This document shows, one piece after another, positions 882 through 63,872 of a stretch of DNA of 64,000 nucleotides. The translations under genes and the position numbers were made by a program. This DNA comes from Antedon mediterranea. Lineage: Eukaryota > Animalia > Echinodermata. Below the pieces are notes generated by a model that was not told the origin of the DNA, did no database searches, and saw only the letters and a program-made list of their open reading frames with translations. The DNA is taken from NCBI RefSeq assembly GCF_964355755.1, contig NC_092676.1:3325888-3389887 (forward strand), read 5' to 3'. Positions within the stretch are counted from its first letter, which is position 1; every line of letters begins with the position of its first letter.

Positions 882-2456
882 ATGGCTCATCATCAACATT
901 GTACATTGTTGTTGTACAAGTGCCTGATTATATTATATAGTATATTTCACTGTTGCTGTGCAGAATCCTATACTTTTATAAAACATCCACATCCGGTTCT
1001 CGTTACGGAAGGACAAATAGTAACGTTCTCGTGTGAATGGACACCAGAATTGAATAGAAATCATGAGTTGAGATGGATATACTTTCCTGAAGGTAGAGCG
1101 TCTCAACAAATTGCAAGTTCAACATTAAAGTACAATTTAACAACTAAAGCAACATCTTCGTATCTTTCCATTTTCAATGTTGATTCTGATGACGTAGGAA
1201 AATACAGGTGTGATATCGTGGAAAATGGTTCTTACAGTCTTTCTAAACAGGCTGTTATAGTGCTAGGAGAAATAACATGCAATCCAGATTATGATAATGG
1301 TGAGATTGGAACAACGCTGACATGTTTTTATCCTTCTTCTTATCTTTCAAATGATATTGATTTACTATGGTATAAAGACTTCGGAAATAGAGTAATATCA
1401 TACACACAAGACAAAAACGTTTTAGAATCAAGGGCTTTGACTGCCGAAGACGATGGAGCTGAATTTAGATGTCTTATAATTTTTAAAATTAGATCTATAA
1501 CGATAGGATTTTGTAAAACTACTCCCCTAATATTGACTATTGATGCAGAGATTGAACAATCACCACCAGGTCCACTTCAGGTTGGAGATAGCTTTAACCT
1601 TACCTGCTCAGGGAAAGGTAATCCTGATTATTATGAATATGAGTGGGTGTGGAATGGCAACCCAGTAGGATCGTCGATAGATAAACGTAGATTTGCAATA
1701 GCTAGTGTGCTTACTATACCGAGTGTATCAAGCAGTGCTAATGGCAAAATAGTTACTTGTACTATTAGTCGTAGTGGTCGTAACAGCAGTACAGCGAGCT
1801 ATACAATAAACGTTCTAGAGAACATTAGGAGTAGGCCTACTACTACACAATTACAAACAACACCAGGTAGACGTACGCAACAAGTCGTTGCAGACAAACT
1901 ACTACCAACTACACGCTTACACACTACACGTTTACAGTCGACACGTACGCAACAACTCATTACAGACCAACTCTCAGCAACTAATATCTCATCGGGTGAC
2001 GAGCCCCCAACACTAATGGTTGTTATTAGTGTACTTGCAATTTCACTCGTAGTTTCTTTAATATTAATAATATACATGTATTTACAAAAGAGGAACTTAG
2101 CTAGGGACAACACAATTTCTTCAAAACGACCGTCGACTAACATTGGGCACAATTACGATTACATTACGTCATCAGACACACACGTGACTACGGCAGTCAA
2201 TGACATAGATAATAAATACGATTATGCCGTATATCCGTGCACAAGAAATGAGAAAAACGTCACTGCTGAATATATTGAGGTAGTCAACTTTTCCAAAGAT
2301 GACCCAGCAAAACCAGAAAGTAATATCACGGCTGAGTACGATAACGTTGCATTGCAACCAGCAGATATTTGCAGCGAAGAGCCAAAGTACGAAAATAATA
2401 AACTACGTGTTAAACGCTACAAGCATGACAACGTTAACGGCACATCAGATTATTAA
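882..2456 (+). CDS. Ig-superfamily type I membrane receptor, copy 1 (signal peptide, 3 Ig domains, S/T stalk, TM, tail class A)
   Basis: Uninterrupted 524-aa ORF. Signal peptide MAHHQHCTLLLYKCLIILYSIFHCCCA; V-like domain SCEW..W..DDVGKYRC; second domain LTC..LLWYK..LTAEDDGAEFRC; third domain FNLTCSGKGNP..YEW..IVTC; TM LMVVISVLAISLVVSLILIIYMYL followed by QKR; tail motifs NYDYI, YDYAV, EYIEV, EYDNV, KYEN. Confidence 0.9.
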   Translation: MAHHQHCTLLLYKCLIILYSIFHCCCAESYTFIKHPHPVLVTEGQIVTFSCEWTPELNRNHELRWIYFPEGRASQQIASSTLKYNLTTKATSSYLSIFNVDSDDVGKYRCDIVENGSYSLSKQAVIVLGEITCNPDYDNGEIGTTLTCFYPSSYLSNDIDLLWYKDFGNRVISYTQDKNVLESRALTAEDDGAEFRCLIIFKIRSITIGFCKTTPLILTIDAEIEQSPPGPLQVGDSFNLTCSGKGNPDYYEYEWVWNGNPVGSSIDKRRFAIASVLTIPSVSSSANGKIVTCTISRSGRNSSTASYTINVLENIRSRPTTTQLQTTPGRRTQQVVADKLLPTTRLHTTRLQSTRTQQLITDQLSATNISSGDEPPTLMVVISVLAISLVVSLILIIYMYLQKRNLARDNTISSKRPSTNIGHNYDYITSSDTHVTTAVNDIDNKYDYAVYPCTRNEKNVTAEYIEVVNFSKDDPAKPESNITAEYDNVALQPADICSEEPKYENNKLRVKRYKHDNVNGTSDY

Positions 2457-3885
2457 AAAACTCAAACCGATTTAATTAATTATATAAAAATATTTTTTCT
2501 CCAAACTAGAGACCAACGTTTATTTTAATATTGGTCTCTAACTAATGTTAAACGTAGAAAATATATTCAAGAAAGTACCGAATCAAAATCAAGGAAGAGT
2601 GAGATTCTTTTCTGATCTAAATTATATGTAAACGAGCAACACAAAACAATAAGGAAGGAAAGGAGTTTTACGAAAAGATTATCTCAAGGTTTCAAAGCAG
2701 GTACAGTACTATGATTGGTTCACGATCAAGTGCCGGTCCGGTCACGTGTTCAGTTTTACATTCACTTTCAAATAATGTTTTATACAATCAATCCGGGTTC
2801 CGACGAGCACACCCCAAAGAAAAAATCGAGTGAGTTCAATCAGTCATTAGAAAGGATTAATGTTGACTTTGGTTAAACTTTGCTACCTAGTTATTTTCGA
2901 CGATGATATTTGAACATGTTTTGTGCGCATGCGCTGAAAGTATATACGTAATATCACATTACACCGAATGTTTCATGAGACATAGTAAGTCTTATATCGA
3001 TTTAACTTGAAGAAACCGACGAAAACCATTATAGAAATTCAGCAAGGAAATCAAAATAACAAATGGCATAATAAAAAGCTAAAAAAGAAAAGAAAAACAA
3101 ATAATAATCGTTGAATATTTATCCACACAAACTGTGAAGTTGAGTACACAAAGAATACAAGAGATGTTAATACAGTATAGTGAAATATTACTCTATTTTA
3201 TCACATTCAATATCAGTGTGCAGAATTATTGTAAAACAAGTTTCTCCACGCCCAAAAGAAAAGAGGACGAAAACCAAAATATTATGACAGAATTGAAAAC
3301 TAGTAAAAACGGTATAAAAAACATCTTACTTTAACCGTTAACACGACAGGCAAGAAAAAGTTTGTTTCAACCAATCACAGTCACGAACAACTCAGCATTT
3401 ACAACTTAAACTGACCATAACGGTTCCAATTGATAGACGTACTTCACGCCCTCTGAAGGAAAAAAAATGAAAATGTATTAGGAAAGTATTTTTACAGTAG
3501 GTCTATTAAATCATTAATGTTGAATATTTAGTGAGACTGTTTCCTGGTATTTTATTTCTGTAGTGATCAAGGGTATCACTAGTGCTGAAGTAGATCATTC
3601 CAACTTATATAACAACAAAATAAACACACTTGTAGTGTCAACGTTTAATGTTTGACTACTAATATAGGATGTAACCGTATACGAAGTTGGATAAAATGTT
3701 GGATTGAAGTGTTTATAAATCTATGCATGCAATCTACATTTTTATAAGGAAGTTAACTTAAGGCAATGTTTGGAAGTCAGTCAAAGTGCCCGAGTCAGTG
3801 TTTTCTATTAGGCATAAAACAACGTGTGGGAACATCACAACATTATAATTGTTCATAATTAGCTACATTGAATGCAAAGCTTACA

Positions 3886-5582
3886 ATGGCTCATCATCAA
3901 TATTGTACATTGTTGCTTTACAAGTGCCTGATTATATTGTATAGTGTATTTGACTACTATTGTGCACAATCCTATACTTTTACAAAACAACCAAAATCTG
4001 TTCTTGTTGGACAAGGAAACACAGCATCGTTATCGTGTGAATGGACACCAGCATTGAATAAAAACCATGTCGTTTACTGGGCAGCATTCCCTCATGTTGG
4101 TGGGTCGCAAGCAATCGATAGGTCAACTTTAAAGTACAATTTAACAACTATAGAAACATCTGCATATCTTTCCATTCTTAATGTTAGTTACAAAGATGTA
4201 GGAAACTACAGGTGTGATATCTTGAATGGTGGTGATTCATACAATCTTTCACGAGAGGCTTCTGTAGTGCTAGGAGAAATAACTTGCAGTCCAGAGAATG
4301 ACAATGGTGAGATTGGAACAACGCTGACATGTTCTTATTTTTCTTCTTATTATTCACGTGATATTGATTTACTATGGTATAAAAACAGGAAACAAATTAC
4401 ATCAAAAGTACAAAAAAACAATGTTACAAAAACAGGAGCGTTGACTGTCGAAGACGATGGAGCTGTATTTACTTGTACAGCCAGACTCGCATCTCAACAT
4501 CAAGTGATAGGAACTTGTGAAACTATTCCGCTAGTATTGACTATAGATGCAGAGATTGAACAATCACCACCAGGTCCACTTCAGGTAGGTGATATCTTTA
4601 ATCTTACCTGCTCAGGGAAAGGTAATCCTGATTATTATGAATATGAATGGACATGGAATAACAAACCGATACAATCGTCGCCAAGTAAAAATCGATTTGC
4701 AATTGGCAATGTGGTTATTGTGAATAGTGTATCAAGCAGTGACAATGGCAAAATAGTTACTTGTACTATTAGTCGTAGTGGTCGCAACAGCAGTACAGCA
4801 AGTTATACAATAAACGTCTTAGAGCATGTGTTGAGTAAAGCTACATCTTTACAGTCGACATCAAGTACACGTGTACGTACAAATCCATTCCACGTCAAAT
4901 ATCAACAGCAACAGCCAATGTTCGAGATTACGTTTCAATGATAGCAGGTTCACACACAGCATCCTTTACTATCACGCAGCATTCCATTACCGACAACAAG
5001 TCCCAAATAGGCCTACAAACGGTTGTCATTTGCGTATGTGCAATTTTGCTCCTAGTTTCTGTAATAACAATAATAAACCTATGTGTGTATTTGCAAAAAA
5101 CAAAAAAGAAAAACACAATTCCTTCAGATCGAATCTCCAATAATCGACAGTCAAATAATGTTGGACATGTTTACGATTATTTTACATCATCTGGCATACA
5201 CGTGACCACGACAGCCAGTGACGAAGTTCAGTATGATTATGCTATTTACCCGGGCACACAAATCATCGAGGGGGTGAATAGCACGGAAAACGAATACGAG
5301 GTTGGTGTATTATCTTCACGTACTGATAGTTTCAGAAAAGTCTGCACAAGTGATAAAGAGCTTGAGTACGAACATGATGACACAATAGGCCTAGGCCTAC
5401 ATCTCAAAGATATGACAGGCACTAATACTTCCGAAAATACATTAGATATTAGGAACAAAATAATTAAACTATGTACGCGCCTGAATGCAGCTGGTGGCAC
5501 TGATGTAAACCTGTACGAAAATAAATCTGTATGTACAAAAGCAGTGACGTCAGCTACGACATCTTTTATACAAAAGAGATAA
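3886..5582 (+). pseudogene. Ig receptor copy 2 with a 1-nt frameshift in the stalk (pseudogene, secreted form, or sequence error)
   Basis: ATG at 3886; three Ig domains in ORF 3868-4941. The stalk, TM (VVICVCAILLLVSVITIINLCVYL) and tail continue in another frame (ORF 4938-5582). Alignment to copy 3 suggests a 1-nt loss near 4887 (ccattccacgt versus expected ccaattccacgt). Confidence 0.8.
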
Positions 5583-9157: not shown

Positions 9158-11053
9158 ATGGTTCATCATCAACATTGGGCATTGCTGTTTTACAAGTGCT
9201 TGATTATATTGTTTAGTATTTTTCACTGCTGTTGTGCAGCACGATCCTATAATTTTACAAAACAACCAGAATCTGTTCTTGTTGGACAAGGAATCACAGC
9301 AACATTATCATGTGAATGGGCACCAGCATTGAAGGAAACACATACGGTTGCATGGTCAGCATTCCCACGTGGTGGTACGTCTCATCTAATTGAAAGTTCA
9401 ACATCAAAATACAATCTAACAACTAAAGCAACCTTATCATATCTTTCCATTTTCAATGTTGGTTACAATGATGTAGGAAAATACAGGTGTGATATCTCGG
9501 ATGACAGTTTCAGTCTTTCTAAAGAGGCTTCTGTAGTTCTAGGAGAAATAGTGTGCAATCCAAAGAATGGCAATGATGAGATTGGAACAACGCTGACATG
9601 TTCTTTTACTTCTTCTCATCCTTCAAATAATATTGATTTACATTTGTATAAAGATGGACAATCAAATAAAACAGAAGTAAAACTACAACATAATAATATG
9701 TTAGAATCAAGGGATTTGACTGCCGAAGACTATGGAGTTCTATTTATGTGTAAAGCTACATTAGGAGGTGATGTGATAGGAACTTGTGAAACTACTCCGC
9801 TGCTGCCCATAGATGCAGAGATTGAACAATCACCACCAGGTACACTTCAGGTTGGTGATAGCTTCAACCTTACATGCTCAGCGAAAGGTAATCCTGATTA
9901 TTATGAATATGAATGGGCGTGGAATGACAAACCTGTACAATCTTCACCAAGCAAAAGACGATTTGCAATAGGTAATGTGCTTACTGTAGAGAGTGTATCA
10001 AGCAAAGCCAATGGCAAAATAGTTAATTGTACTATTAGTCGTGAAGATCGTAACAGTAGTATAGCAACCTATACAGTGAAAGTTTTAGAGCAAATGACTA
10101 CACGTTTGCAGTCGACATCTGGTACGCGTACGCGCAACTCAATTACGCGTCAACTATCAACCAACCTCCCTGATGACGAGTCCCCAAAAGTAACGACTAC
10201 ACGTTTACAGTCGACACTAGGTACACGTACGTACAAGCCAATTACCGTCAGACTATCAGAAACTAATTTCCAGGATAATGATTCTACAATTGTAATCATT
10301 GTCATCATTGGCGGAGTTGCGATAGCTCTTGTGAGTTTGATAACAGCATTTATAATTTACTTTTTAAAGAAAAGGCACAAGAAACAGTACGACAAAGAAG
10401 AGACAAAACCCGAAAATGTACCATTGGAAAAACCAGTGTACGGTAACACAGAACAAAACATTAACAGTTCTGAAATAGATAATGACCTATGTGAAAATGT
10501 GGAGACAATGTACGCAGAACCTGACATGTCAGAAAATGGTTGGCATATCAAATATAACACGCCACAGAATGCAGTAAACATTCATAAAACTGATGATTCT
10601 TTAGGTAAGTCAATGAAACCTAATGGAACGAGTGATGCTAAGCCGAGAAAAACGACAAGTGCCGAAAGTACAGATGCAATACAAGTAAAACCGATCAAGG
10701 CCCACAGTAAAGAAATTATTGAAGATTTGTATTCTAAGCCCAACAAACGGAATGCGAAAACGCTGATCGAGGCCCACAGCCAAGAGAATATTGAAGATCT
10801 GTATACTAGGCCTAATAAACCGACTGCAAGCAGACCAACCAAGGCCCACAATGTTAAAGAAAGTCTGGAAGATCTGTATTCTAAGCCCAACAAACCAACG
10901 ACAAGAACGCCAGAAATTACGCACGAAGATCCTACTAAGAAAAATGTAGAAGGCTTATCGTACGCAGAAATAGAGTTTAAAAGCGGTACGTTCCCAGCTC
11001 CTGGACCACAGGACTACGGGCTTGATTACGCAACTGTACAGATTAAGAAGTAA
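9158..11053 (+). CDS. Ig receptor copy 3, tail class B (ITIM-like)
   Basis: Intact ORF (ATG 9158) with three Ig domains and TM IVIIVIIGGVAIALVSLITAFIIYFL. Tail has VYGN, MYAEP, three EDLY(S/T)(K/R)PNK repeats, LSYAEI and C-terminal LDYATV. Confidence 0.9.
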   Translation: MVHHQHWALLFYKCLIILFSIFHCCCAARSYNFTKQPESVLVGQGITATLSCEWAPALKETHTVAWSAFPRGGTSHLIESSTSKYNLTTKATLSYLSIFNVGYNDVGKYRCDISDDSFSLSKEASVVLGEIVCNPKNGNDEIGTTLTCSFTSSHPSNNIDLHLYKDGQSNKTEVKLQHNNMLESRDLTAEDYGVLFMCKATLGGDVIGTCETTPLLPIDAEIEQSPPGTLQVGDSFNLTCSAKGNPDYYEYEWAWNDKPVQSSPSKRRFAIGNVLTVESVSSKANGKIVNCTISREDRNSSIATYTVKVLEQMTTRLQSTSGTRTRNSITRQLSTNLPDDESPKVTTTRLQSTLGTRTYKPITVRLSETNFQDNDSTIVIIVIIGGVAIALVSLITAFIIYFLKKRHKKQYDKEETKPENVPLEKPVYGNTEQNINSSEIDNDLCENVETMYAEPDMSENGWHIKYNTPQNAVNIHKTDDSLGKSMKPNGTSDAKPRKTTSAESTDAIQVKPIKAHSKEIIEDLYSKPNKRNAKTLIEAHSQENIEDLYTRPNKPTASRPTKAHNVKESLEDLYSKPNKPTTRTPEITHEDPTKKNVEGLSYAEIEFKSGTFPAPGPQDYGLDYATVQIKK

Positions 11054-15641: not shown

Positions 15642-15674
15642 GAAATAGGCAATGAGGGTTTAGCCGTAAATTCT

Positions 15675-27825: not shown

Positions 27826-29525
27826 ATGGCTCATTCTCAATATTGGACATTGCTGTTCTTCAAGTTTCTGATTATATTTCATATATCTCACTGTTGTCGT
27901 GCACAGTACTACAATTTTACAGAACATCCACAATCGGTTCTCGTGTGACGCTATCGTGTCAATGGACACCAGCATTGAATAACAACCATCTCGTAACATG
28001 GAAATACGATCGTGTTAATAGTCCTAAACGAATTGAAATTTCAGATACAAAATACGCATTAATGAACGAAGCAACATCTTCAAGCCTTTCCATTTCTAAT
28101 GTTGGCTCTGGTGACGTAGGCAACTACATTTGTGAGATCTTCGAATGTGATTCATACAACAGTGTCTCATCTTCTACATTTGCTTCTCTAGTATTAGGAG
28201 AATTGATATGTAATCCGGAGAATATTGTTGATATAGGAACAACGCTGATATGCTCCTTCACCTCTTCTGATAATTCATATATTATTAATTTACTATGGTA
28301 TAACAACGGAAAACAAATAACTTCGGGACAACAACAAAACAATGATTTAGAATCAACGGCTATGACTGCCGAAGACGAAGGAGGTGTATTTACTTGTAAA
28401 GCCACCATCGGATTTCAAAGTCAAGCGACAGGAACTTGTGAAACTACTCCACTAGTATTTCCAATAGATGCAGAGATTCAACAATCACCACCAGGTCCAC
28501 TTCAGGTTGGTGATAGCTTTAATCTTACCTGCGTAGGGAAAGGTAATCCAGAAAATTATAATTACGAATGGACGTGGAATAACAACCCAGTAGAATCTAT
28601 GACAGATAGTCGATTTGCAATTGGCAATATGGTTATTGTGAATACTGTATCAGGCAGTGACAATGGCAAAATGGTTTCTTGTACTATTAGTAGTGGTGGT
28701 TACAGAAGTATAGCGAGCTATACAATAAACATTTTGGATCAGACGTCGAGTACAACTACAAGTATGTCGACACCAGATAGGCCTACACGTACGCAAAAAC
28801 CAATTACGGCGGTCAGACTCACCATACCTGATGACCCGGATGACATTTCAACAACAGTAATGACTACACGTTTAAAGTCGACACTAGATACACGTACGCA
28901 AAAACCAATTACGGTCAGACTCACAACACATAATGTTCCGGATGACATTTCAACAGCAGCAATGACTACACCAGGTACACGTTTGCAAAAACCAATTACA
29001 CATCAACTCACAACACATAAAGTCTCGGAAGACGTTTCCGCAACAGTAGACCTAATGAATACACGTTTAAACACAACACCTGTTACTGTAACGCGTTCTA
29101 TTACAGAAATCCTAACGGTTGTAATTATCGTAGTTGCAATTTTACTCGTCGTTTCTTTGATAATAATAATAAGCCTATGTGTTTATTTGCAAAAAAGAAA
29201 AAAGAAAAACACAACTCCTTCAAATCGACTGTCAAATAATCTTGAGCACGTTTACTATGACATTACGTCATCTAGCGCACACGTGACCTCGACAGCCAGT
29301 AACACTAAGTATGATTATGTCATACACCCGTTCACACGAAATACGGAAGAATCCACTCCTGAGTACCTTGAATTGGACGATGGTTTCCAAGATGGCGCAC
29401 CAAAATCAGCAAGTAATACAGCCGCTGATTACGATGATGTTGCATCGGAACAAACAGATACTAATAACAAAGAGTACAAATACGAAAACGGTATGCTGCG
29501 GGATAAAGGTATCAGAGAGACATAA
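27826..29525 (+). pseudogene. Ig receptor copy 4, frameshifted near the start of the V domain
   Basis: ATG 27826 reads MAHSQYWTLLFFKFLIIFHISHCCRAQYYNFTEHPQSVLV*. A deletion at ~27945 shifts the frame; the rest (3 Ig, repeated stalk, TM, tail with VYYDI, YDYV, EYLEL, DYDDV, KYEN) is open in ORF 27804-29525. Confidence 0.85.
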
Positions 29526-32974: not shown

Positions 32975-33623
32975 TTAAGGAAAGGAATTATAATATATGT
33001 ACCCTAAATGATATAAGGAATACAAACTTACATTGGCTAAAAAGTTGTATGGTACACCCTAAACATTGGACTATGGTATTTTACAAAATTATGCTTGATT
33101 ACATTTAAGTATTATACACTTGTTAAAAACCACCGATATCGGTTATCGTTGCAAAAAGACAAATAACAAAGTCATCGTGTGAATGGGCACCAGAAGTTTA
33201 TGCAAACGATGTACTGAATTATGGTATAGATGGAGTGGTAAACAATTTATAAATTCAGAAACAAATTAAGTAAACATAAATCTATGTATATGTTTCCATC
33301 TAATTGTAGCCTTAGATTAATCTAGTTAAACTAAGTGTTCAATGCTTACAAAACAAAGGAGGGGCCAATGCGGGGTTGGGGGTTACACATTTACTGTCAT
33401 TACACCTAGAAGACAGACATTTAATCAGAAATTGTATATTTTCATAAAAAGAACTATATCTTTCTACATATATTTAAATCAATAGTATGTTGAAATTACT
33501 GTATTTGACAATGTGTAATTCTTATTCTTCTTCAGCAGTTATCAGGTATTCCTGTCGTGTGTGGCAGCAGATAGCAACTTACATAAAAAGAAACAGGAAT
33601 GATCCAACGTTTTAGTTCGAAGT

Positions 33624-33937: not shown

Positions 33938-35816
33938 ATGGCTCATCATCAATATTGTACATTGCTGTTGTACAAGTACCTGGTTATATTGTATAGTATA
34001 TTTCACTGTTGTTGTGCACAATCCTATACTTTTACAGAACATCCACAATCGGTTCTTGTTGCAGAAGGACAAACAGCAAATATATCGTGTGAATGGACAC
34101 CTAAATTGAATGAAACCCATCATGTTGCATGGAGATACTATCCTTTTAGTACAAGAACGGATCAAATAATTGAACGTTCAACGTCAAAATACATTTTCAG
34201 AAAAGGTACAACATTTTCAAATCTTTCCATTTTGAATGTTGATCCTAATGATGTAGGACACTACCGGTGTCGTATCTCCAAAGGTGATGTTGTATACATT
34301 TTTTCTGAATTTACTTATGTAGTGATAGGAGAGTTAACGTGTAGTCCAGAATATGATAATGGTGACATAGGAACAACGATGACATGTACTTATACTTCAT
34401 CTGATCCTGTATATATTATTGATTTACTATGGTATAAAGAGGGAAATGAAATTACTTCAGCAGCACAACGAAGTAATATCAAAGAATCAAGGACTTTGAC
34501 TAGTGAAGACGATGGAGCTGTATTTACTTGTAAAGCTATCCTCGGTTATCAAGTGATAGGAACTTGTGAAACTACTCCTCTAATATTGACTATAGATGCA
34601 GAGATTGAACAATCACCACCAGGTCCACTTCAGGCTGGGGATAGGTTTACCCTTACCTGTTCAGGGAAAGGTAATCCTGATTATTATGAATGGACGTGGA
34701 ATGGCAAACTTATAGGATCGTCGACAGATAAAAGGCGATTTGCAATAGGTAATGTGCTTACTGCGACGAGAGTATCAAGCAGTGCCAATGGCAGAATAGT
34801 TACTTGTACTATTAGCCGTAGTGGTCGTACCAGCAGTACAGCGAGGTTTACATTAAACGTGCTAGAGAACATTTCCAGTAGGCCTACTACTACACATTTT
34901 CAAACAACACCAACGCAACAGGTCGTTACAGACAAACTACTACCAACTACACGCTTACACACTACACGTTTACAGTCGACACGTACGCAACAAGTCGTTA
35001 CAGACAAACTACTGCCAACTACACGCTTACGCACTACACGTTTACAGTCGACACGTACGCAACAAGTCGTTAATGACAAACTACTACCAACTACACGCTT
35101 ACACACTACACGTTTACAGTCGACACGTACGCAACAAGTCGTTACAGACAAACTACTGCCAACTACACGCTTACCCACTACACGTTTACAATCGACACGT
35201 ACGCAACAAGTCGTTACAAACAAACTACTACCAACTACACGCATACACACTACACGTTTACACACTACACGTTTGCAGTCGACACGTACGCAACCATTCA
35301 TTAAAGACCAACTCTCAACTAATATCTCATCGGTTGACGAGCCCCCAACACTAATGGTTGTTATTAGTGTACTCGCAATTCTACTCGTAGTTTCTGTAAT
35401 AACAACGATATACATGTATTTGCAAAAAAAAAAACGTATCTAGAGACAACATAATTCCTTTAAATAGACCACCGAATAATATTGAACACAATTACGATTA
35501 CATTGTGTCTTCAGACACACAGATCAACACGACAGGCAAAGACACACACACGTATGATTATGCCATATATCCGTGTACACGAATCACAGAGAACATCAGT
35601 GCTGAATACATTGAAGTAGAAGACAGTTCCCATGAGGGCCCACAAAAACCAGAACAAAATATGACCGCAGTCGAGAACGATGATGTTTCCTTACAACCAA
35701 CGGATATTTGCAGCAAAGAGGCCATGTACGAAAATGGTAAATTGCGTATCAAAGGCATAGCAACTTCTGACAAGGTGACAATTAAGTACGAAAATATTAA
35801 AACATCTACGCGTTAG
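33938..35816 (+). pseudogene. Ig receptor copy 5 with an expanded mucin-like stalk and a +1 frameshift in a poly-A run after the TM
   Basis: ORF 33929-35443 has 3 Ig domains, stalk repeats and TM. A11 at 35424-35434 replaces the 10-nt A6-G-A3 of paralogs; tail class A continues to TAG at 35816. Confidence 0.8.
34913..35292 (+). repeat. Coding minisatellite, 72-bp unit (TQQVVTDKLLPTTRLHTTRLQSTR), about 5 copies
   Basis: Units start at 34913, 34985, 35057, 35129 and 35201. Copy 1 has a single unit. Confidence 0.92.
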
Positions 35817-36894: not shown

Positions 36895-37313
36895 GAACAA
36901 ATGAATGGAAGGGCACCAGTTGAGATCAACGTTAACGAGAATAAGAAAGAAAGTTGTAACCAAAAAAAAAATGAATATGACTGTGTAAAATCAGCAGACA
37001 ATCAAAACGATAAAATGACTGAAACAGACAGTGAAAATGAGTATGATTATGTGGAAACATCAAACATAGGCTCCATAGTAAAAGAAGGCACTGCAGAATA
37101 TATTGAGGGTGTTGATGACAACACTGATGCTGATTCCTTGACTGCCCTACTATAAACAGAAACTAATAGGGCTACTGTGGCTGAGTACAATGATGCTTCA
37201 ATACCACTAAACTAATTTCAATAAATACTAGAAAAATGATAAAGGTATCTGGACTTCGACGTATACGAAAACGCATCTGTACGCACAAAACCACTGAAGT
37301 CTGCAAGGAAATA
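36895..37313 (+). pseudogene. Orphan cytoplasmic-tail segment (EYDCV, EYDYV, EYIEG, EYND, VYEN)
   Basis: Homologous to the tail of copy 7 (50200-51183) and to 62257-62703. No ectodomain directly upstream; in-frame stops present. Confidence 0.7.
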
Positions 37314-37944
37314 GAAGAAGCAAAACAGAACGAAACGTAAGATCAAAAACAACAATGAAAACTGCACCAAACAATACATTACATTAAATACCTCTTTAAA
37401 AATATAAATATCTGCCATTTCAGTTTTCCAGGTATGATCTATTAAATTTGTTAAGTGAAATCTTTATCTTTCACTATTTCCAAAATACTGTTCCTATCCC
37501 GTAGATGAGTCTGACATATTTTCAGATACAAAAAAAAGCAATAATGACTAAATTATACGTTGAAATGTACAGTAATTAATTGGTCTGTTGTTTAAGAAAG
37601 TAAATTGAAATAAATTAGAGAGATTATTCAGTTATTTACACGTTACAAGTTTGTAATTTTGTGAATATGCATTTAATAAATAAATATAATCAGGTACTAC
37701 ACACGTTGGAAAAAAAGATATCTAATTCTTTGATAATTTTTTTTAAAGATAGAAAACAACTTTAACTTAATAAAGTTAATGAAGGAAAAACATTAAAAGT
37801 GAAACCATTAATTTGTTTTGTTATTGTTTTAACTCTAGATTTGACTTGACTTTCGGTTCAATGCTCAGTATAATGTTGCATTCACACGGAGACGGCGCCG
37901 TTCAATTCTTAATAGAATGTATCTATTATTTAACAAAAACTCAA

Positions 37945-40815: not shown

Positions 40816-42259
40816 ATGGCTCATCATCATTGCTTGTTGTGCCTGATTGTATTGTATAGTATATTTTACGACTGTTTTGCTCGAATTTATATTTTCACAG
40901 AAGATCCAAAATTGGTTCTTATTGCAAAAGGAAACACAGCAAGGCTATCGTGTGCATGGACACCAGAATTGTATGAACTGCATAACTTTGAATGGATATT
41001 ATTCCCTCTGAATGGTGGTGAGCCTCAATCAATTAGAATGTCAAATTCAAAATACAATCTAACAAATGACGCAACATCTTCGAATCTTTCCATTTCCAAT
41101 GTTGATTTCCATAACGCGGGAATATACAGGTGTGATATCACCGGAATAAATGAATACAGTTTTTCTAATGAGGCTTCTGTAGTGATAGGAGAAATAACGT
41201 GCAATCCAGAGAATGATAATGGTGAAATAGGAACAACAGTGACATGTTCTTATCCTCCTTCTTATCCTTCAAATGATATTGATTTACGATGGTATAAAAA
41301 CGGAAATATAGTAATATCAGACACACAAGTCAAACACGTTTTAGAATCAAGAGCTTTGACTGCTGAAGACGATGGAGCTGTATTTACTTGTAAAGCTTTT
41401 ATCTGAAATCAAGTGATAGGAACTTGTCAAACTACTTGTAAAGCTTCAATCGGACCAAAACGTCATGTGATCGGAACTTGTGAGACTACTCCGCTAGTAT
41501 TGAATATAGATGCAGAGATTGAACAATCACCGCCTGGTCCACTTCAGGTTGGTGATAGCTTTACCCTTACCTGCTCAGTGAAAGGTAATCCTGATTATTA
41601 TAAATATGAATGGACGTGGAATGACAAACCTGTAGGATCGTCACCAAATGAAAGAAGATTTGCAATAGTGAGTGTGCTTATTGTGAAGGATGTAACAAGC
41701 AGTGACAATGGCAAAATAGTTACTAGTTATAATAGTTACTACTAATAGGTACTATTAGTCGTAGTGGTCGTGACACTAGCACAGCGAGCTATACAATAAA
41801 CGTGCTTGAGAATTTTTTGGGTAGGCCTACAACTACACAATTGCAAACAACACCAGGTAGACGTACGCAACAAGTCGTTACAAACCAACTATCAGAAACT
41901 AATATCTCTTCGGGTGACGAGCCCCCAACACTAAAGGTTGTTATTAGTGTACTTGCAATTTTACTCGTAGTTTCTGTAATATTTATAATATACACGTATT
42001 TGCAAAAAAGAAACGTATCTAGGGACAACATAATTCCTTTAAATCGACCATCGAATAATATTCAACACAATTACGATTATGTTGCGTCTTCAGACCCACA
42101 GATCACCACGACAGACAATGACACACACACGTATGATTATGCCATATTATCCGTGTACACGCATCGCAAAAAAACCCAGTTCTGAATACATTGAAGTAGA
42201 AGACAGTTCCCATGAGGGCCCACAAAAACCAGAACAGAATATGACCGCATTCGAGAACG
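40816..42259 (+). pseudogene. Ig receptor copy 6 (5' part), multiply disrupted
   Basis: ATG 40816; in-frame TGA at 41404; duplicated loop segment 41384-41490; micro-duplication frameshift at ~41725-41750; breaks at 42259 within tail class A. Confidence 0.88.
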
Positions 42260-43405: not shown

Positions 43406-43912
43406 AATAAACATGAACTTTATGTATATAAGCATTTATCTATTTGAGCATGTATGGTCAATTGTTTGTGGTAGGGATTAAAAAAAAAGTTTATACATAT
43501 TATCATCATTCGAATATTTAATTTCTAATCACATATTTAGTTTTTATATATTTTATAAATAGTATATACTTTATAGTGTAAGCACATTTATCTATGTAAA
43601 CAACTTTGGACAATAGTAAAAATTACAGCAGAAATTCATTCATTCATCTACTTCACTAAAATGACGTAGCCAAATTGATTCTTCCTGCACTTTTCCTGAA
43701 ATGTTAATTGCTATACTTTTTACATTTTGGAGCTCCAAGAAACTGGAGCTCCAAAATTGGATTATAACATCTTTAATTACATCAGTACTATGCATTTATT
43801 GTGTCAGCATCCTTGTTGCCATTAAGACAGTCAAGGAGTGAGAGTGGTTGATTCTTCAACTTTTGTACCTTTAATGTTTGTTCTTGAAACACTTTCATAT
43901 AATGGTTTGTTT

Positions 43913-44121
43913 GTACACGTTTGTATCATTATTAGGTCATGCACAACTAGGTGACGTCATCTTAGTTATCTCATCTCATCTTCTCTAACGCGTAGATGTT
44001 TTAATATTTTCGTACTTAATTGTCACCTTGTCAGAAGTTGCTATGCCTTTGATACGCAATTTACCATTTTCGAACGTGGCCTCTTTGCTGGAAATACCCG
44101 TTGGTTGTAAGGACACATCAT
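43913..44121 (-). pseudogene. Inverted 3' end of Ig receptor copy 6
   Basis: Minus strand reads DDVSLQPTGISSKEATFENGKLRIKGIATSDKVTIKYENIKTSTR* and joins seamlessly to 42259 (gagaacg|atgatgtgtcc), as in copy 9. Confidence 0.88.
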
Positions 44122-44760
44122 CTTGTATTTTGACTCCAAATTTGTTAACTAACTTTATCCTGAATACCACACTTTAAAATTAGGACTTATAAGTACTTTC
44201 AGAAGGAGAAACACATAAAAACAAATAAATAAATCCTTTGAATTGATGATTTTACAGACGTGTTTCTTTGTATACTGTAACTCCTCCCATGCTGAATGTT
44301 TTTGTTTCTATGGAGCGCCAAAAGAGCAACAATAATAGTACAAGTATAAAAACAGAAAGAAAACGAAACAAAAAAACTTATTATCATGATTTTTAAATTA
44401 AAATTTATTTGCGAGTATTTATTTCTTCGTACTAGCATGATTATACTATTATCATTACAATTTTAATTTTACATTGTTCCGTCTACACTGTAGATCGACT
44501 CCACAGAGTTTTCAGCCCTCTATATAATTTTTGCTCTTTTGACGTTCCATAGAAACCAAAACATTGAACATGGGGTAGGCCTCTGTACTGTTAGGCTAGT
44601 CATGCGAAATTCGCAAACAGTATGTGTGCGATCGAGAAAAACGTCTGTAAAATCATCAATTTAAAAATGTATTTGTTACTTTTTATTTGATTCTTTTTCA
44701 TAAAAGTGCTAATTCTAAGATGTGGTGTTCAGAATAAATGTTGGGAGTTAAAATACAAGG
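44122..44760. mobile_element. Fold-back element with long imperfect inverted arms
   Basis: cttgtattttgactcc..ctgaataccaca..aattgatgattttacagacg pairs with cgtctgtaaaatcatcaatt..tgtggtgttcag..ggagttaaaatacaag. Its right end (44683-44867) is duplicated at 42260-42444. Confidence 0.7.
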
Positions 44761-48883: not shown

Positions 48884-51183
48884 ATGGCTCATCATCAACA
48901 TTGTACATTGCTGATCGTTATATTGTATACAATTTTTTTACTGCTGTTGTGCACAAACCTATACTTTTACAAAACATCCACAATCGGTTCTCGTTACGGA
49001 AGGGCAAACAGCAACGTTGTCGTGTGAATGGACACCAGCACCAACACATGACGTTTTATGGTCTTTTTTCCCTCGTGTTGGTACGCCTAAATTAATTGAA
49101 AGTTTAACATTAAAATACAATGTAATAAGTAAAGCAACATCTTCAAATCTTTCCATTTTTAATGTTTATTCTGATGACGTAGGAAGATACAGATGTGATA
49201 TCTTGGATGGTGATTCATACAGTCTTTCTGAACTTGCTTCTGTTTAGTGCTAGCAGAAATAACGTGCAATCCAGAGAATGGCAATGGTGAGATAGGAACA
49301 ACGCTGAAATGTTCTTATATTTTGTCTCATCCGTTAGATAATGTTGATTTATTATGGTACAGATATGGAAGTGTAATTGAATCACATCACAAACAAATGC
49401 ATGTTTTAGAATCAAGGGTTTTGACTGCCGAAGACGATGGAGCTGTATTTACTTGTAAAGCCACAATGGGATCTCAAGTGATAGGAACTTGTGAAACTAC
49501 TCCGCTAATATTGAACATAGATGCAGAGATTGAACAATCACCACCAGGTCCACTTCAGGTTGGTGATAGCTTTAACCTCACGTGCTTTGGGAAAGGTAGT
49601 CCTGATCCTGGTAATTATATTTATGAATGGATATGGAACAACATTTCTGTAGATTCTTTGAAAAGTAATTGGCGATTTGCAATAAGCAATGTATTTACTG
49701 TGAAGAGTGCGACAACCAAAGACAATGGTGAAATAGTTACTTGTACTGTCAGTCGTGATGGACGTGACAGCAGTACAGCGAGCTATATAATAATAAAACA
49801 TTTCGGAGATTCCATTGAGTATATTAACTACACCTTTGCAATATTCTGTTACAGACCTATTACCATCAACCAATGTCTCGGACGACGAACCTCCAAAACT
49901 AACGATTGTCGTTGGTGTCGTAGCTCTTGTGATTTTGATAACAGCAATTATAATATACTTTTTACACAGAAGGCGCAAGAGCAATCAGTACGTCAACAAA
50001 ACAAAACCAATGACCCTACAATTACAGCCAAATTGTGGTCACATGGAACAACAAATTACATTTGTTGACAACAGAAATATACAAACTTCAGCAAGCAAGA
50101 GTCTAACACACAAGATACCAGTATGCATGAAAACCCTACCGTGTCAGCACAGGACACAATAAAAGAAAAGTATTATATGGTATCGGTAGACATTCACAAC
50201 CATGGAATCACTACAACATGCAACAGAAATGAATGTGATAGTGTGGATTTAACAACAGACAAGCACAATACTAAAATGGCAGCTGAAAGAGACAGCCAAA
50301 ATGACTGTGATTATGTGGAGTCAGCAACAGACAATCACAACATTGAAACCATCACATCAGGTAGCGTAAATGAGTATGATTATGTGGAAACATCATGCAA
50401 TGGAGCTAGAGTGAAGACTATCGGAAAAAACATTGAACTTGCCGATGACAACAGCAATTGTCCCAAGAGAAAGCCACTGAAAACAGAGAATAATAAGCCT
50501 ACAACGACTAAGTACAATAATGATTCAATGTCACAAGCAGATGTTTCCAGAAATGCCAGAGCTAATGATGAATTGTCCAAAAACAGTAAATTGCATCACC
50601 TCAAAGATATCACAAGCATGGCAACATCTGACGACCAGAACATGTATGAAAATGTTAAAATGCCGCGATTGAGGAAAGATAAAGTACTGCTTACAGTTAC
50701 AGGCAGTAGAGAAGATGACGTCACCACGGTACACGACGTGAATACAAAACCCAATACAAACGTGTACGAAAATTTATTTATTTTTTATTTATTTTCCACA
50801 TTTATTTAGTCATCAATTACAGTACATCATAATTACAGTACAACTGAAAACAGGGATCCTGCATAAAAAAGCTGTAGCTTCGTTTTTTTGTAGGACCCTT
50901 TGCTTCGATGTCAAAAACATGTGTTTCCAGAAAAAACAGAACCAACGATAAAGAGGCTGAGTATGAAAACAGTAAACTGCATCTTAAAGATATCACAAGC
51001 CTGACAACATCTGACGACCAGAACATGTACGAAAATGTGAAACGTGTGTTACGGAGACTGAGAAAAGATGGAGTAACCGTCATGGACAACCGCGAGGATG
51101 ACGTCACCCTAGTGCACGCGAATACACATGTGTACAAAAATGCACCAATACGAACAAAAGCAGTGAAGTCTGCTAAGAAATAA
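48884..51183 (+). pseudogene. Ig receptor copy 7 with several frameshifts and a long Tyr-repeat tail
   Basis: ATG 48884; shifts at ~48935 (T7), ~49245, ~49800 and ~50120. Pieces encode the V domain, domains 2-3, TM IVVGVVALVILITAIIIYFL, and tail motifs EYDYV, MYENV, VYEN and EYEN. Confidence 0.88.
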
Positions 51184-53601: not shown

Positions 53602-55311
53602 ATGACTCATCATCATTGCTTGCTGTGCCTGATTGTATTGTGTAGTATATTTTACGAATGTTTTGCACAAACATATGTCTTCACAGAAGACCCGAAATCG
53701 GTTCTTGTTGCTGAAGGAAACCCAACAATTCTATCGTGCGCATGGAGGCCAGAATTGGATGAACGAAATACCTTTCAATGGTCATTTTTCCCTCAGAATG
53801 GTGGTGAGCCTCAATCAATTAGAATGTCAAATTCAAAATACAATCTAACAACCGACGCAACATCTTCGAATATTTTCATTTCCAATGTTGATTCTAATTA
53901 CGCGGGAAAATACAGGTGTGATATCAGACACGGCGATACAGACATTCTTTCTAAACTGGCTACTGTAGTGCTAGGAGAAATAACGTGCAATCCAGAATAT
54001 GATAATGGTGAAATAGGAACAACGATGACATGTTCTTATACTTCTTCTTATCTTTCAAATTTGATTTATTTACAATGGTATAAATCAGAAGAACAAGTAC
54101 AATTAGACACCCAAGACAAACACGTTATAGAATCAATATTTTTGACTGCAGAAGACGATAGAGCTGTATTTACTTGTAAAGCTATACTCGAAAATCAAGT
54201 GATAGGAACTTGTGAAACTACTCCGCTAATACTGACTATAGATGCAGAGATTGAACAATCACCACCAGGTCCACTTCAGGTTGGAGATAGCTTTAACCTT
54301 ACCTGCTCAGGGAAAGGTAATCCTGATTATTATAATTATACATGGATGTGGAATGACAAACATGTAGGATCGTCGCCAGATAAAAAAAGATTTGCAATAG
54401 GTAATGTGCTTACTATGACAAGTGTATCAAGCAGTGCTAACGGCAAAACAGTTACTTGTACTATTAGTCGTGATGGTCGTAACAGCAGTACAGTGAGCTA
54501 TACAATAAATGTTGCAGAAAATACGCAAAGTACAACTGCACGTTCACGCACAACACAAGGTAGGCCTACTGGTACAGACCTACTATCAGCAACAACATTA
54601 TTATCAACCAAACTATCAGCAAACAATGTCACGTACGACGAGCCACAAACATTGATTATTGTCATTGGCGTAGTTGCAACAGTTATTGTGATTTTGATAA
54701 CAGCAATTGTAATTTACATTTTACATAAAAGGCGTAAGAAACAGGATGGCAACAAAACAAAACCCGAAAGTGTACCATTGAAAGAACCAATGTATGGTAA
54801 CACTGATCAAGACATTAACACTTCTGAAAAATCATGCGTACAAAATGGCCCTCGGAGTGAAAAGTTGACAACAGATTTTACAGTATATGATGAGCCTACG
54901 ATTTCAAGTTCAAATACTCAGTTGGATACTATGTACGCCGAACCTGATACGTTAGTAACTGGTCACGATGCTAGGTATGACACGCCACGGAACGCTATAA
55001 GTCTTGATAATGTCGATACAGCGAATACTGATGAAGCGAATGATGCAAAGCCAAGAAAAACAAAAAGCAGAGAAAGTATAGATGCAATGTACGCGAAACC
55101 GAACAAATCTCGCAGTACAGAAAGTATTGATGATCTGTATGCTACGCCCAACAAACCGACTGCAAGAACGCCAGTGATTACCCGTGAAGATCCTACTAAG
55201 AAAAACATAGAAGGTCTAACATACGCAGATATAGAGTTTAAAGGCGGTACGTTTCCAAACCCTGAACCACAGGACTACGGACTTGATTACGCAACCGTAC
55301 AGATTAAGTAG
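53602..55311 (+). CDS. Ig receptor copy 8, tail class B (ITIM-like)
   Basis: Intact 569-aa ORF with 3 Ig domains and TM LIIVIGVVATVIVILITAIVIYIL. Tail motifs MYGN, VYDEP, MYAEP, RYDTP, MYAKPNK, LYATPNK, LTYADI and LDYATV. Confidence 0.92.
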   Translation: MTHHHCLLCLIVLCSIFYECFAQTYVFTEDPKSVLVAEGNPTILSCAWRPELDERNTFQWSFFPQNGGEPQSIRMSNSKYNLTTDATSSNIFISNVDSNYAGKYRCDIRHGDTDILSKLATVVLGEITCNPEYDNGEIGTTMTCSYTSSYLSNLIYLQWYKSEEQVQLDTQDKHVIESIFLTAEDDRAVFTCKAILENQVIGTCETTPLILTIDAEIEQSPPGPLQVGDSFNLTCSGKGNPDYYNYTWMWNDKHVGSSPDKKRFAIGNVLTMTSVSSSANGKTVTCTISRDGRNSSTVSYTINVAENTQSTTARSRTTQGRPTGTDLLSATTLLSTKLSANNVTYDEPQTLIIVIGVVATVIVILITAIVIYILHKRRKKQDGNKTKPESVPLKEPMYGNTDQDINTSEKSCVQNGPRSEKLTTDFTVYDEPTISSSNTQLDTMYAEPDTLVTGHDARYDTPRNAISLDNVDTANTDEANDAKPRKTKSRESIDAMYAKPNKSRSTESIDDLYATPNKPTARTPVITREDPTKKNIEGLTYADIEFKGGTFPNPEPQDYGLDYATVQIK

Positions 55312-58994: not shown

Positions 58995-60494
58995 ATGGCT
59001 CATCCCCAACATTGGACATTGCTATTTTACAAGAAGTGTCTGATTATATATTATAGTATATTTTACTGCTGTTATGCACGATCTTATACTTTTACAAAAC
59101 ATCCACAATCAGTTCTCGTTGCAGAAGGACAAACAGCAACGTTGTCATGTGCATGGTCACCAGCATTGAATGGAAACCATGATTTTGCATGGTCTTATTT
59201 TCGACCTGGTATTAACATTCAACGAATTGATGGTTTAAATGCAAGATACAATATAATAAATGAAGCAACCTTTTCAAATCTTTCCATTTTCAATGTTGGC
59301 TCTTTTGAAGTAGGAAGATACAGGTGTGATATCTTTGACGATGACGCTTCATACATTCTTTCTGAGCAGGCTGTTGTAGTGCTAGGAGAAATATCGTGCA
59401 ATCCAGAATACGACAATGGTGAAATAGGAACAACGATGGCATGTTCTTATATTTCCTCTTATAATGTTAATGCTATTGATTTATTATTTTATAAGAACGG
59501 AAAAATAATTACATCAGAAGTACAAGATAATGTTTTAGAATCAAGGGCTTTGACTAGCGAAGACGATGGAGCTGTATTTACTTGTAAAGCTATACTCGAA
59601 AATCAAGTGATAGGAACTTGTGAAACTACTCCCCTAATATTGCCTATATATGCAGAGATTGAACAATCACCACCAGGTACACTTCAGGTTGGAGAAAGCT
59701 TTAATCTTACCTGCTCAGGGAAAGGTAATCTTGATTACTATGAATATGAATGGATGTGGAGTGGCAAACCTGTAGGATCGTCACCAAATGAAAGGTCATT
59801 TGCAATAGGTAACATGTTTATTGTGAAGGATGTATCAAGCAATGCCAATGGCAACATAATTACTTGTACCATTAGTCGTAGTGGTCGTAACAGCAGTACA
59901 GCGAGGTATACAATAAACGTTCTAGAGAATATTTCGAGTAGGCCTACAACACCAGGTAGACGTACGCAACAAGTCGTTACTGACAAATTCTCAGCAACTA
60001 ATATCTCATCGGGTGACGAGCCCCCAACACTAATGGTTGTAATTAGTGTACTTGCAATTTTACTCGTACTTTTTGTAATAACAACAATATACATGTATTT
60101 GCAAAAAAGAAACGTATCTAGGGACAACATAATTCCTTTAAATAGACCATCGAATAATATTGGACACAATTACGATTATGTTGCGTCTTCAGACACACAG
60201 ATCACCACGACAGGCAATGACACATACACGTATGATTATGCCATATATCCGTGTACACGTATCGCAGAGAACATTAGTGCTGAATACATTGAAGTAGAAG
60301 AGAGTTTCCATGATGGCCCACAAAAACCAGAACGAAATATGACCACATTCGAGAACGATGATGTGTCCTTACAAGCAACGGATATTTGCAGCAAAGAGGC
60401 CACGTACGAAAATGGTAAATTGCGTATCAAAGGCATAGCAACTTCTGACAAGGTGACAATTAAGTACGAAAATATTAAAACATCTACGCGTTAG
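58995..60494 (+). CDS. Ig receptor copy 9, tail class A
   Basis: Intact ORF (ATG 58995) with 3 Ig domains, short stalk and TM. Tail motifs NYDYV, TYDYAI, EYIEV, TYEN and KYENI. Confidence 0.92.
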   Translation: MAHPQHWTLLFYKKCLIIYYSIFYCCYARSYTFTKHPQSVLVAEGQTATLSCAWSPALNGNHDFAWSYFRPGINIQRIDGLNARYNIINEATFSNLSIFNVGSFEVGRYRCDIFDDDASYILSEQAVVVLGEISCNPEYDNGEIGTTMACSYISSYNVNAIDLLFYKNGKIITSEVQDNVLESRALTSEDDGAVFTCKAILENQVIGTCETTPLILPIYAEIEQSPPGTLQVGESFNLTCSGKGNLDYYEYEWMWSGKPVGSSPNERSFAIGNMFIVKDVSSNANGNIITCTISRSGRNSSTARYTINVLENISSRPTTPGRRTQQVVTDKFSATNISSGDEPPTLMVVISVLAILLVLFVITTIYMYLQKRNVSRDNIIPLNRPSNNIGHNYDYVASSDTQITTTGNDTYTYDYAIYPCTRIAENISAEYIEVEESFHDGPQKPERNMTTFENDDVSLQATDICSKEATYENGKLRIKGIATSDKVTIKYENIKTSTR

Positions 60495-62256: not shown

Positions 62257-62703
62257 GAACAAATGAATGGAAAGGGCACCAGTTGAGATCAACGTTAACG
62301 AGAATAAGAAAGAAAGTTGTAACAAAAAAAAAATTAATATGACTGTGTAAAATCAGCAGACAATCAAAACGATAAAATGACTGAAACAGACAGTGAAAAT
62401 GAGTATGATTATGTGGAAACATCAGGCATAGGCGTCAAAGAAGGCTCTGCAGAATACATTGAGGTTGTTGATGACACTGATGCTGATTCCATGATTGCAC
62501 TACTAAAAACAGAAACTAGTAGGCCTACTGTGGCTGAGTACAATGATGCTTCAATACAACAAAACTATATTTCAATAAATATTAGAGAAAATGATAAAGA
62601 GGCTGAGTTCGAAAACAGTAAATTACATCGTGTTAAAGGTATCTTCGACGTATACGAAAACGCATCTGTACGCACAAAACCACTGAAGTCTGCAAGGAAA
62701 TAG
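62257..62703 (+). pseudogene. Orphan cytoplasmic-tail segment (open 108-aa ORF 62377-62703)
   Basis: EYDYV, EYIEV, EYND and VYEN; paralog of 36895-37313. Confidence 0.7.
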
Positions 62704-63760
62704 AAGAAGCAAAACAGAACCAAACGTAAGATCAAAAACAACGATGAAAACTTCACCAAACAATACATTACATCAAATACCTCTTTAAAAAAATAAATAT
62801 CTGCCATTTCAGTTTCCCAGGTATGATCTATTAAGGCTTTTGTTAAGTGAACTTTCACTTTTTCCAAAATACTCATAATTTGACAAAATAAGCAATAATT
62901 ACTAAATCATACGTTGAAATGTACAGTAATTAATTGGTTTGATGTTTAAGAAAATAAAATGAAATAAATTAGAGAGATGAATATTAACCAGAAAATAGAA
63001 GAGTAGGAAGTCCTAGAAAATAATTAGCAAGAATTGAAATCGTACAGGAAAAAAAGTCAGCAAACATAAGCATTCTAACGTGATCGTCAAAATGGTCTAT
63101 GATGGTTCTCTCTAAAACCTCGACTATACGTCATTAGATTTATATAAATATAATAATTATAACTAATAAACTTTAAGCAAGAACTAAATTGTTAAGTTAT
63201 TTACACGTTACAAGTTTCTAATTTTGTGAATATACATTTAATAAAATAATTGTACCAGGTATTACGAACGTTGGAAAGAAAGCTATCTTACACTTTAGTA
63301 ATTTTTATTAAAAGATAGAGAACAACTTTAACTTCAGCATTTATCAAGTATTCCTGTCGTGTGTGGCAGCAGACGGCAACTTACTTAAAAAGAAAAAAAG
63401 AAACAGGAATGATCCAACGTTTTAGTTTTAAGTTACTCTATAGGGGGCGGTATGCATTACTAGTTTTACCTATAGAATGGAATATGTTAAAATAACTGTA
63501 TACAGGTTACGTAGTTGATGCTAATATCACTTTAGCAGGGGTACGCTACAATACAGTTCACAGTAATCTGAGTGTTTAAACAGAGTATATTGTACCAACA
63601 ACGTGCACATGTGAGCATCTACAAAAAGTATTATAAAGGCTAATTTTAAGTCTAAGTATAATTGAATTTTGTATTATTATTTCTGGACATTTTTGATCCA
63701 TACAATCTGGAATTTGATGGGTAAGGTAATCGATATTGAAGTTTAGCAGACGTGTTTATA

Positions 63761-63872
63761 ATGGCTCATCATCAACATTGTACATTGCTGATGGTTATAT
63801 TGTATACTATGTTTTACTGCTGCTGTGCACAAACCTATACTTTTACAAAACATCCACAATCGGTTCTCGTTA
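63761..63872 (+). pseudogene. Ig receptor copy 10, 5' end, interrupted by an insertion
   Basis: MAHHQHCTLLMVILYTMFYCCCAQTYTFTKHPQSVLV; promoter and leader are nearly identical to copy 7; homology stops at 63872. Confidence 0.85.

Follow-up and report, generated by a model that had tools for sequence, protein, structure and literature searches.

We analysed 64,000 nucleotides of contig NC_092676.1 of the echinoderm Antedon mediterranea (NCBI RefSeq assembly GCF_964355755.1, positions 3,325,888 to 3,389,887 of the forward strand), called the window below, which hold a tandem array of genes for receptors with three immunoglobulin (Ig) domains. We performed self-tblastn of the window together with three-frame translations and found 10 receptor copies (c1 to c10), all on the plus strand, with start codons at 882, 3886, 9158, 27826, 33938, 40816, 48884, 53602, 58995 and 63761, besides the decayed 5′ fragment of an eleventh copy at about 33040–33216. 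An earlier note, made from the letters of this stretch, had described ten co-oriented paralogs, a mix of intact and broken copies and coding sequences free of introns, and all three statements held up. Intact single open reading frames of 499–631 codons are present in four of the ten copies (c1, c3, c8 and c9), and the other six (c2, c4, c5, c6, c7 and c10) are broken. The four intact copies run from ATG to stop in a single frame and are colinear with their homologues; their coding regions, as distinct from untranslated regions, are therefore without introns in all four.

The layout present in the window copies is a signal sequence, three Ig domains, a stalk, a single transmembrane segment (TM) and a cytoplasmic tail. 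The tails fall into class A, which carries inhibitory motifs of the immunoreceptor tyrosine-based type (ITIMs), and class B, which carries YDx[VI] and YEN motifs. The copies and their fragments are as follows (positions in the window).

882..2456, plus strand: c1, intact 524-residue receptor with signal, three Ig domains, stalk, TM and tail; class B tail (YDYI, YDNV, YEN)
3886..5582, plus strand: c2, frameshift in the stalk near 4870; predicted 351-residue three-Ig product without TM; class B tail in another frame
9158..11053, plus strand: c3, intact 631-residue receptor; class A tail (five YxxP, tandem ITIM LSYAEI and LDYATV)
27826..29525, plus strand: c4, frameshift by deletion near 27945, where domain 1 begins, remainder open; class B tail; the most divergent copy
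33040..33216, plus strand: decayed 5′ fragment of the eleventh copy, with the signal and the beginning of domain 1
33938..35816, plus strand: c5, stalk long and made of S/T repeats; frameshift within an 11-A run (35424–35434) right after the TM; predicted tail-less 501-residue product
36896..37314, plus strand: tail-only YDYV/YEN relic 3′ of c5
40816..42259, plus strand: c6, pseudogene with a stop, an internal duplication and frameshifts; nearest c8 in upstream region and ectodomain, nearest c5 and c9 in the tail
43910..44122, minus strand: tail of c6, an inverted 3′ end between identical 185-nt repeats (42260–42444 and 44683–44867)
48884..50809, plus strand: c7, pseudogene carrying several frameshifts; hybrid of a class A-like TM and a long YDYV/YEN tail
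53602..55311, plus strand: c8, intact 569-residue receptor; class A tail (five YxxP, tandem ITIM LTYADI and LDYATV); ectodomain modelled
58995..60494, plus strand: c9, intact 499-residue receptor; class B tail (YDYV, two YEN)
63761..63871, plus strand: c10, 5′ end only, about 37 codons before unrelated DNA takes over; its upstream region and that of c7 share 97% identity

Given its position in the 11-A run, the frameshift of c5 may be an assembly error. The predicted product of c2 would, if translated, be a secreted ectodomain, and that of c5 a tail-less membrane form. Further tail-only YDYV/YEN modules, all interrupted, lie at about 6925–7010, at 50878–51183, at 62257–62703 and in the 3′ flanks of c5 and c9; such modules may be what is left of deleted copies, or else alternative tail exons. 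The inversion of the c6 tail between the 185-nt repeats (42260–44867) is likely a recent transposon-linked rearrangement or a local misassembly. An orphan copy of the upstream block shared by c5, c7 and c10 lies at 45775–46267 with no gene behind it, and 52029–52691 holds a 332-nt tandem duplication at 99% identity.

Protein architecture and family membership

Pfam recognised Ig domains in all seven copies scanned. Domain 1 is of a short V/I type, with V-set above the cut-off in four of the seven and I-set scoring higher in every one; domain 2 is C2-like with an extra cysteine pair, and domain 3 is I/C2-like. An AlphaFold2 model of the c8 ectodomain, built on a 54-row alignment, gave three Ig domains at a mean predicted local distance difference test score (pLDDT) of 89.9, and single-sequence fold prediction reached 34.7 only. 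The shared layout given in the earlier note thus stands for the three-Ig part and fails for the tails, which form two non-homologous classes plus a hybrid. Structure searches returned generic Ig matches only. Among the top matches to domain 1 were Kirrel/Neph1, Rst, SYG-1, Dpr, RIG-5 and nectin-like proteins (Z 13–14), a likeness of fold that is tied with antibody and titin domains, at 13–25% sequence identity, and is therefore not diagnostic.

Judged by sequence, the window copies are distant members (about 20–30% identity) of the echinoderm and hemichordate KirrelL/Kirrel2L/IgTM three-Ig family. We performed a HMMER search with c9 against 1.84 billion representatives and obtained 118 matches, none above 39% identity; a subset of matches of 370–750 residues spans the whole ectodomain in a single stretch. 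Thirty of the 118, picked mostly for this whole-ectodomain pattern, were looked up, and names were found for 21 (14 echinoderm, five hemichordate and two fish). The supplement to PMC8903837 includes sequences of the echinoderm skeletogenic-cell Ig proteins KirrelL, Kirrel2L, Hypp1164 and IgTM; compared with these by eye over the first 400 residues, match P0031 is Aj_kirrelL and P0046 is Aplc_Kirrel2L. Also by eye, P0023 and P0094 are like Kirrel2L, P0038 is like KirrelL and P0081 is like IgTM.

Three further lines place the copies in this family. First, the extra cysteine pair flanking domain 2, a mark taken from our own alignment and not from a paper, is present without exception among the window rows covering it (9 of 9 and 8 of 8) and among the rows of the family (44 of 44), and absent from the single fish control row. 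Second, a 25-row family profile matched seven of seven window ectodomains nearly end to end at 116–145 bits, compared with 139–356 bits for held-out members, 110 bits for one partial match and at most 87 bits for other full-length Ig matches; this profile is not fully independent, as its rows were found with c9 and aligned alongside the window rows. Third, in a 56-row tree, from which near-duplicates and eight long multi-Ig rows were dropped, the window copies group as a clade of their own at 100/100 within an open fork inside the family, which agrees with the lineage-specific expansion proposed earlier, and in a 32-row tree this clade is sister to the echinoderm group at 98/91. The earlier note had not recognised a named family in these genes, a view that this placement does not support. 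Telling against the placement, the top E-values among the 118 HMMER matches belong to generic multi-Ig proteins, the best match being a generic fish multi-Ig protein, and the window clade is long-stemmed, with its position open in the 56-row tree and its bootstrap unsettled in the 32-row tree.

Within the family, orthology to Kirrel2L was rejected by the approximately unbiased (AU) test (p-AU 0.024, with the long branch in play), and orthology to KirrelL, absent from the best tree, was neither favoured nor rejected (p-AU 0.076). A word-index homologue search with c9 gave no match among 7958 candidates; the same search with a 30-row profile gave five, one of them a family member. Searching with P0116 led to a separate “kin of IRRE-like” subgroup and not to KirrelL. 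Atlas matches comprised generic three-Ig clusters and one echinoderm cluster at 0.90–0.92, which we treat as a lead only.

The window genes share with KirrelL, Kirrel2L, IgTM and Hypp1164 the order of signal, three Ig domains, stalk, TM and tail, the extra cysteine pair of domain 2 and a single-exon coding sequence (stated for kirrelL), and with some relatives the tail motif NVEGLxYA. They differ in that the known members, only about 20–30% identical to them, are conserved orthologues that serve in development: KirrelL and Kirrel2L are conserved across echinoderm classes and KirrelL is required for skeletogenic cell fusion (PMC8903837), and IgTM regulates skeletal branching (PMC6768484). The window clade, in contrast, consists of recent tandem duplicates on a long stem, most of them broken, with diversifying selection and swapped tails.

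The same literature bears on the missing introns. kirrelL has no introns in all echinoderms examined there and possibly derives from retrotransposition early in the phylum (PMC8903837). We found the family members P0009, P0012 and P0031, KirrelL included, on one contig of 1,865,526 bp in Anneissia, and P0011, P0050 and P0094 on one chromosome in Amphiura, which hints at an ancestral cluster. Intron loss, and possibly clustering, is therefore likely inherited, and a recent retrocopy as founder, in line with the retrocopy that the earlier note had suggested, is not supported: kirrelL is itself intronless, and no consistent poly-A tract follows the stop codons of the eight copies examined.

Divergence of the ectodomain

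The three Ig domains have diverged to different degrees. From domain 1 through domain 2 to domain 3, mean identity between paralogs rises (51%, 61% and 72%), and the Nei-Gojobori ratio of nonsynonymous to synonymous change (dN/dS) falls (1.11, 0.90 and 0.70; 36 pairs for each value). Differences at four-fold sites are near-equal (0.20, 0.15 and 0.18). Comparing codon models M1a and M2a on nine copies and 263 columns, we obtained twice the log-likelihood difference (2dL) of 79, with a dN/dS (omega) of 3.5 on 19% of sites. Sites with a posterior above 0.95 make up 13 of 84 codons in domain 1, 7 of 90 in domain 2 and 0 of 89 in domain 3. This signal persists with the four intact copies alone (2dL 34.1) and without gap-adjacent columns (2dL 55.6), and holds under M8a versus M8 and under GY frequencies. 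About 20–30% of sites are strongly conserved, and the family is therefore not simply decaying. The diversification claimed in the earlier note is thus found with a focus on the distal domain and a signal of positive selection, weaker under synonymous rate variation.

On the c8 model, 13 of 45 front-face positions of domain 1 are selected, compared with 2 of 39 others (Fisher p = 0.005). They lie on the BC loop, on alternating residues of strand C, on C′, at the end of F, on the FG loop and on G, with strand names assigned to the model from standard Ig topology. These results support a concentration of positive selection on the predicted ligand-binding face of domain 1 (the GFCC′ sheet with the BC and FG loops).

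Tail classes and their exchange between copies

The tyrosine-motif tails seen earlier are real and include tandem ITIMs. Class A tails (c3 and c8) each have five YxxP motifs and a C-terminal pair of motifs of ITIM consensus; class B tails (c1, c2, c4, c5, c6 and c9) have YDx[VI] and YEN motifs. The two classes are non-homologous, and c7 is a hybrid with a class A-like TM and a long YDYV/YEN tail. Compared with shuffled tails, class A shows 4 ITIMs (0.47 expected) and 10 YxxP (1.55 expected), and class B shows 7 YEN (0.31 expected) and 6 YDx[VI] (0.45 expected), in tests picked after inspection of the sequences and on copies that are not independent of each other.

Upstream regions group c2 with c3, c5 with c7 and c10, and c6 with c8, and every one of these groups mixes tail classes. 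In c6 and c8 the upstream DNA is 87% identical and the ectodomains group at 100/98, yet the tails cannot be aligned; conversely, the tails of c5, c6 and c9 are 90–94% identical and their ectodomains 77–79%. AU tests reject the tail groups as ectodomain clades (p = 1e-5 for c3 with c8 and 6e-5 for c5 with c6 and c9). Since the grouping by upstream region and ectodomain conflicts with the grouping by tail, unequal crossing-over or conversion has re-paired ectodomains and tails. A gene of one exon with a repetitive stalk would ease such re-pairing.

Sequencing runs, regulatory scans and mobile elements

We mapped contigs from four sequencing runs to c8–c9 at 85% likeness, which gave 930 (X4), 654 (X7), 167 (X5) and 34 (X10) contigs over all identity bands. 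The family is shared with related species and is variable, with alleles and paralogs mixed in these contigs. Summed contig depth over domain 3 is many times the single-contig depth in X4 and X7, which is not a copy number. Run X5, whose RNA nature is a guess, has coverage in all 30 bins, the intergenic transposon included, and so was not used as evidence of expression. No GT-AG joint was found among the 15 joints listed out of 59. At contig joints 54040–59530 and 59299–53964 (X4, X5 and X7), c8-like sequence gives way to c9-like sequence, or the reverse, close to the boundary of domains 1 and 2; these contigs hint weakly at further mosaic paralogs, and assembly-graph effects are possible.

Scans for the promoter motifs of Alx1, Ets, NF-kB, IRF, STAT, Runx and GATA gave nothing above 60 background tiles. 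A conserved GC-box-like motif lies 300–380 nt upstream of c5, c6, c7, c8 and c10, across two upstream classes, and is a candidate promoter element.

The window has about 33% GC, with LINE, LTR and DNA elements between the copies, and we recognised no flanking host gene within its 64 kb. Between c3 and c4 (14202–26802), a LINE-like element (SGNH/GDSL open reading frame, endonuclease and remnant of a reverse transcriptase) is interrupted by a Ty3/Gypsy-type LTR element. The latter has near-identical LTRs (16845–19132 and 25699–25873), its 5′ LTR split by a 2.1-kb inverted-repeat element and its pol frame by about 2 kb. A C-terminal fragment of another LINE, with a zf-RVT domain, lies at 38561–39490 between c5 and c6. 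Between c8 and c9 lies an element of 2.68 kb (55913–58596) bounded by terminal inverted repeats of 20 nt; contigs of X4, X5 and X7 bridge it and therefore represent an empty site in another haplotype or a paralogous locus.

A candidate cluster of paired recognition receptors

On balance, and with moderate confidence, we favour the explanation that the array is a lineage-specific birth-and-death expansion of KirrelL/Kirrel2L/IgTM-type proteins that likely turned into paired recognition receptors, probably immune ones. The copies of this KirrelL-type family stand in tandem with one coding exon each, four intact and six broken; amino-acid change is fastest in domain 1, statistically mostly on its predicted GFCC′ sheet and BC and FG loops; and upstream regions with their ectodomains have recombined with different tails. 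By established motif consensus, class A tails would attract SHP-type phosphatases and thereby damp responses, and class B tails would recruit adaptors of Nck or Grb2 type, leading to actin remodelling, adhesion or engulfment. Domain 1 would have a rapidly changing ligand, the likeliest candidate being a surface protein of a microbe or parasite, one that binds to the ancestral adhesion contact or imitates it. This proposal is drawn by analogy with CEACAM1 and CEACAM3, of an adhesion family that is bound by bacteria and under strong positive selection, in which an ectodomain was probably recombined onto a Nck-recruiting phagocytic tail (PMC7026191). The immune or allorecognition function suggested in the earlier note stays a putative one.

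Clustered paralogs, a fast N-terminal domain and both ITIM and non-ITIM tails are also found in CEACAM1/3, SIRP, LILR and NITR, and ectodomain–tail recombination has been proposed for CEACAM3 (PMC7026191). The window genes differ from these vertebrate paired receptors in having a single coding exon and in lacking an immunoreceptor tyrosine-based activation motif (ITAM) and a charged TM residue, and the likeness is one of logic and not of membership. SIRP, for instance, has a V-C1-C1 ectodomain with an exon per domain. We rejected membership in it, as C1-set appeared once only, below the cut-off, in the seven copies scanned, and the coding exon is single.

Several results weigh against this explanation. 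All characterised relatives are developmental, acting in cell fusion (KirrelL) and skeletal branching (IgTM). Under a shared site-rate gamma the 2dL drops to 12.0 (p = 0.0025), and under class-specific synonymous rates to 9.4, with a fast-class omega of 1.85 (p = 0.002); the codon models have no recombination, which can inflate such tests; and domain 3 alone is also weakly positive (p = 0.01). The overall ectodomain omega is 0.88, and part of the divergence is therefore due to relaxed constraint. None of 13 tail stretches contains an ITAM and the intact copies have no charged membrane-core residue, so that calling class B “activating” is a motif analogy only, and the motif counts carry the limits given with them. 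The NVEGLxYA[DE] motif of class A occurs in 6 of 144 fetched proteins, brittle-star and hemichordate members among them, and the ITIM-like motif is therefore ancestral and not an innovation of the array.

The alternative that survives best, though we consider it unlikely, is a histocompatibility locus, in which allele- or paralog-specific binding of domain 1 in trans would label self, ITIM tails would signal tolerance or permit fusion, and mismatch would lead to rejection, as with Hydractinia Alr. Ancestor-type members of the family act in cell–cell fusion (PMC8903837), and adult sea-star coelomocytes show allorecognition with self-markers yet to be identified (PMC9763293). The face that carries the selected sites is the one known to be used in trans by Ig adhesion proteins. 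Domain shuffling, pseudogenes and ITIMs parallel the Alr complex, where clustered Ig genes with pseudogenes likewise show most variation in domain 1 and some ITIMs; Alr genes differ in having one exon per domain, core Cys and Trp that are often lost, an Fn3-like spacer and many ITAMs (10.1101/2022.03.04.482883). In the window genes the coding exon is single, Cys and Trp are canonical, the stalk is rich in S/T and no ITAM occurs, and membership in Alr was rejected on exon structure and domain types. Against such a locus, the variation measured here is between paralogs and not alleles, which in the contigs of other runs cannot be told apart, and for one stretch of c9 run X4 shows just 2 differences in 487 bases, X4 possibly being the source individual.

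Rather improbable, in our view, is that the genes still encode developmental adhesion or fusion proteins, a cell-matching code of skeletogenic, neural or regenerative cells, whose divergence owes much to relaxed constraint with gene conversion in an unstable array. It fits that all characterised relatives are genes of skeletogenic mesenchyme, that YDxV tails match the Nck–actin coupling known from fusion, that the overall omega is 0.88, that six of ten copies are broken, and that the selection signal falls under synonymous rate variation. However, KirrelL and Kirrel2L are conserved across echinoderm classes and the window clade has no relative above 39% identity among the 118 matches; a nonsynonymous gradient over flat four-fold sites, clustered on one face, is not expected from drift; and no Alx1 palindrome lies in the 600 nt upstream of any of the 10 copies, which is a weak test.

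Gamete or larval recognition, where species-specific surface proteins are also positively selected, would account for selection on the outer binding face, but many paralogs, tails of opposing type and frequent pseudogenes generally fit immune clusters better, and we hold it to be very improbable. Misassembly as the main source of the array, or of its broken copies, can practically be dismissed: the break of c5 does lie in a homopolymer and there are local repeats (185 nt at 100%, 332 nt at 99%), but ectodomain DNA is 72–85% identical between copies, too divergent for haplotype duplicates and therefore marking real paralogs, family sequence is present in sequencing runs of three organisms, and the lesions that break c4, c6, c7 and c10 comprise deletions and stops, an inversion and an insertion.

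We return to paired recognition receptors, of which a bolder form is offered tentatively. An ancient echinoderm cell-fusion family may, in this lineage, have been converted into a single-exon paired-receptor complex in which domain 1 would carry specificity for self or pathogen and tails of ITIM and of Nck/Grb2 type would be swapped by unequal crossing-over, a counterpart of CEACAM and SIRP among invertebrate deuterostomes and possibly an echinoderm histocompatibility locus. What looks new here is that an Ig family already known from development behaves like the paired-receptor clusters of vertebrates. In the literature searched, with most subscription papers outside its scope, no expanded, diversifying, ITIM-bearing KirrelL-like cluster is described; Ettensohn and Dey 2017 and a sea urchin immune-repertoire paper of 2006 may already note paralogs or clustering. 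Echinoderm immunity includes expanded innate receptor families and SpTransformer. To these the array adds concrete single-exon candidates for self-markers, easy to amplify and clone, and it ties the ancestral ITIM-like tail of the KirrelL family to a testable signalling role. If the explanation is true, the array would represent a second, independent route from an adhesion or fusion protein to a paired immune receptor.

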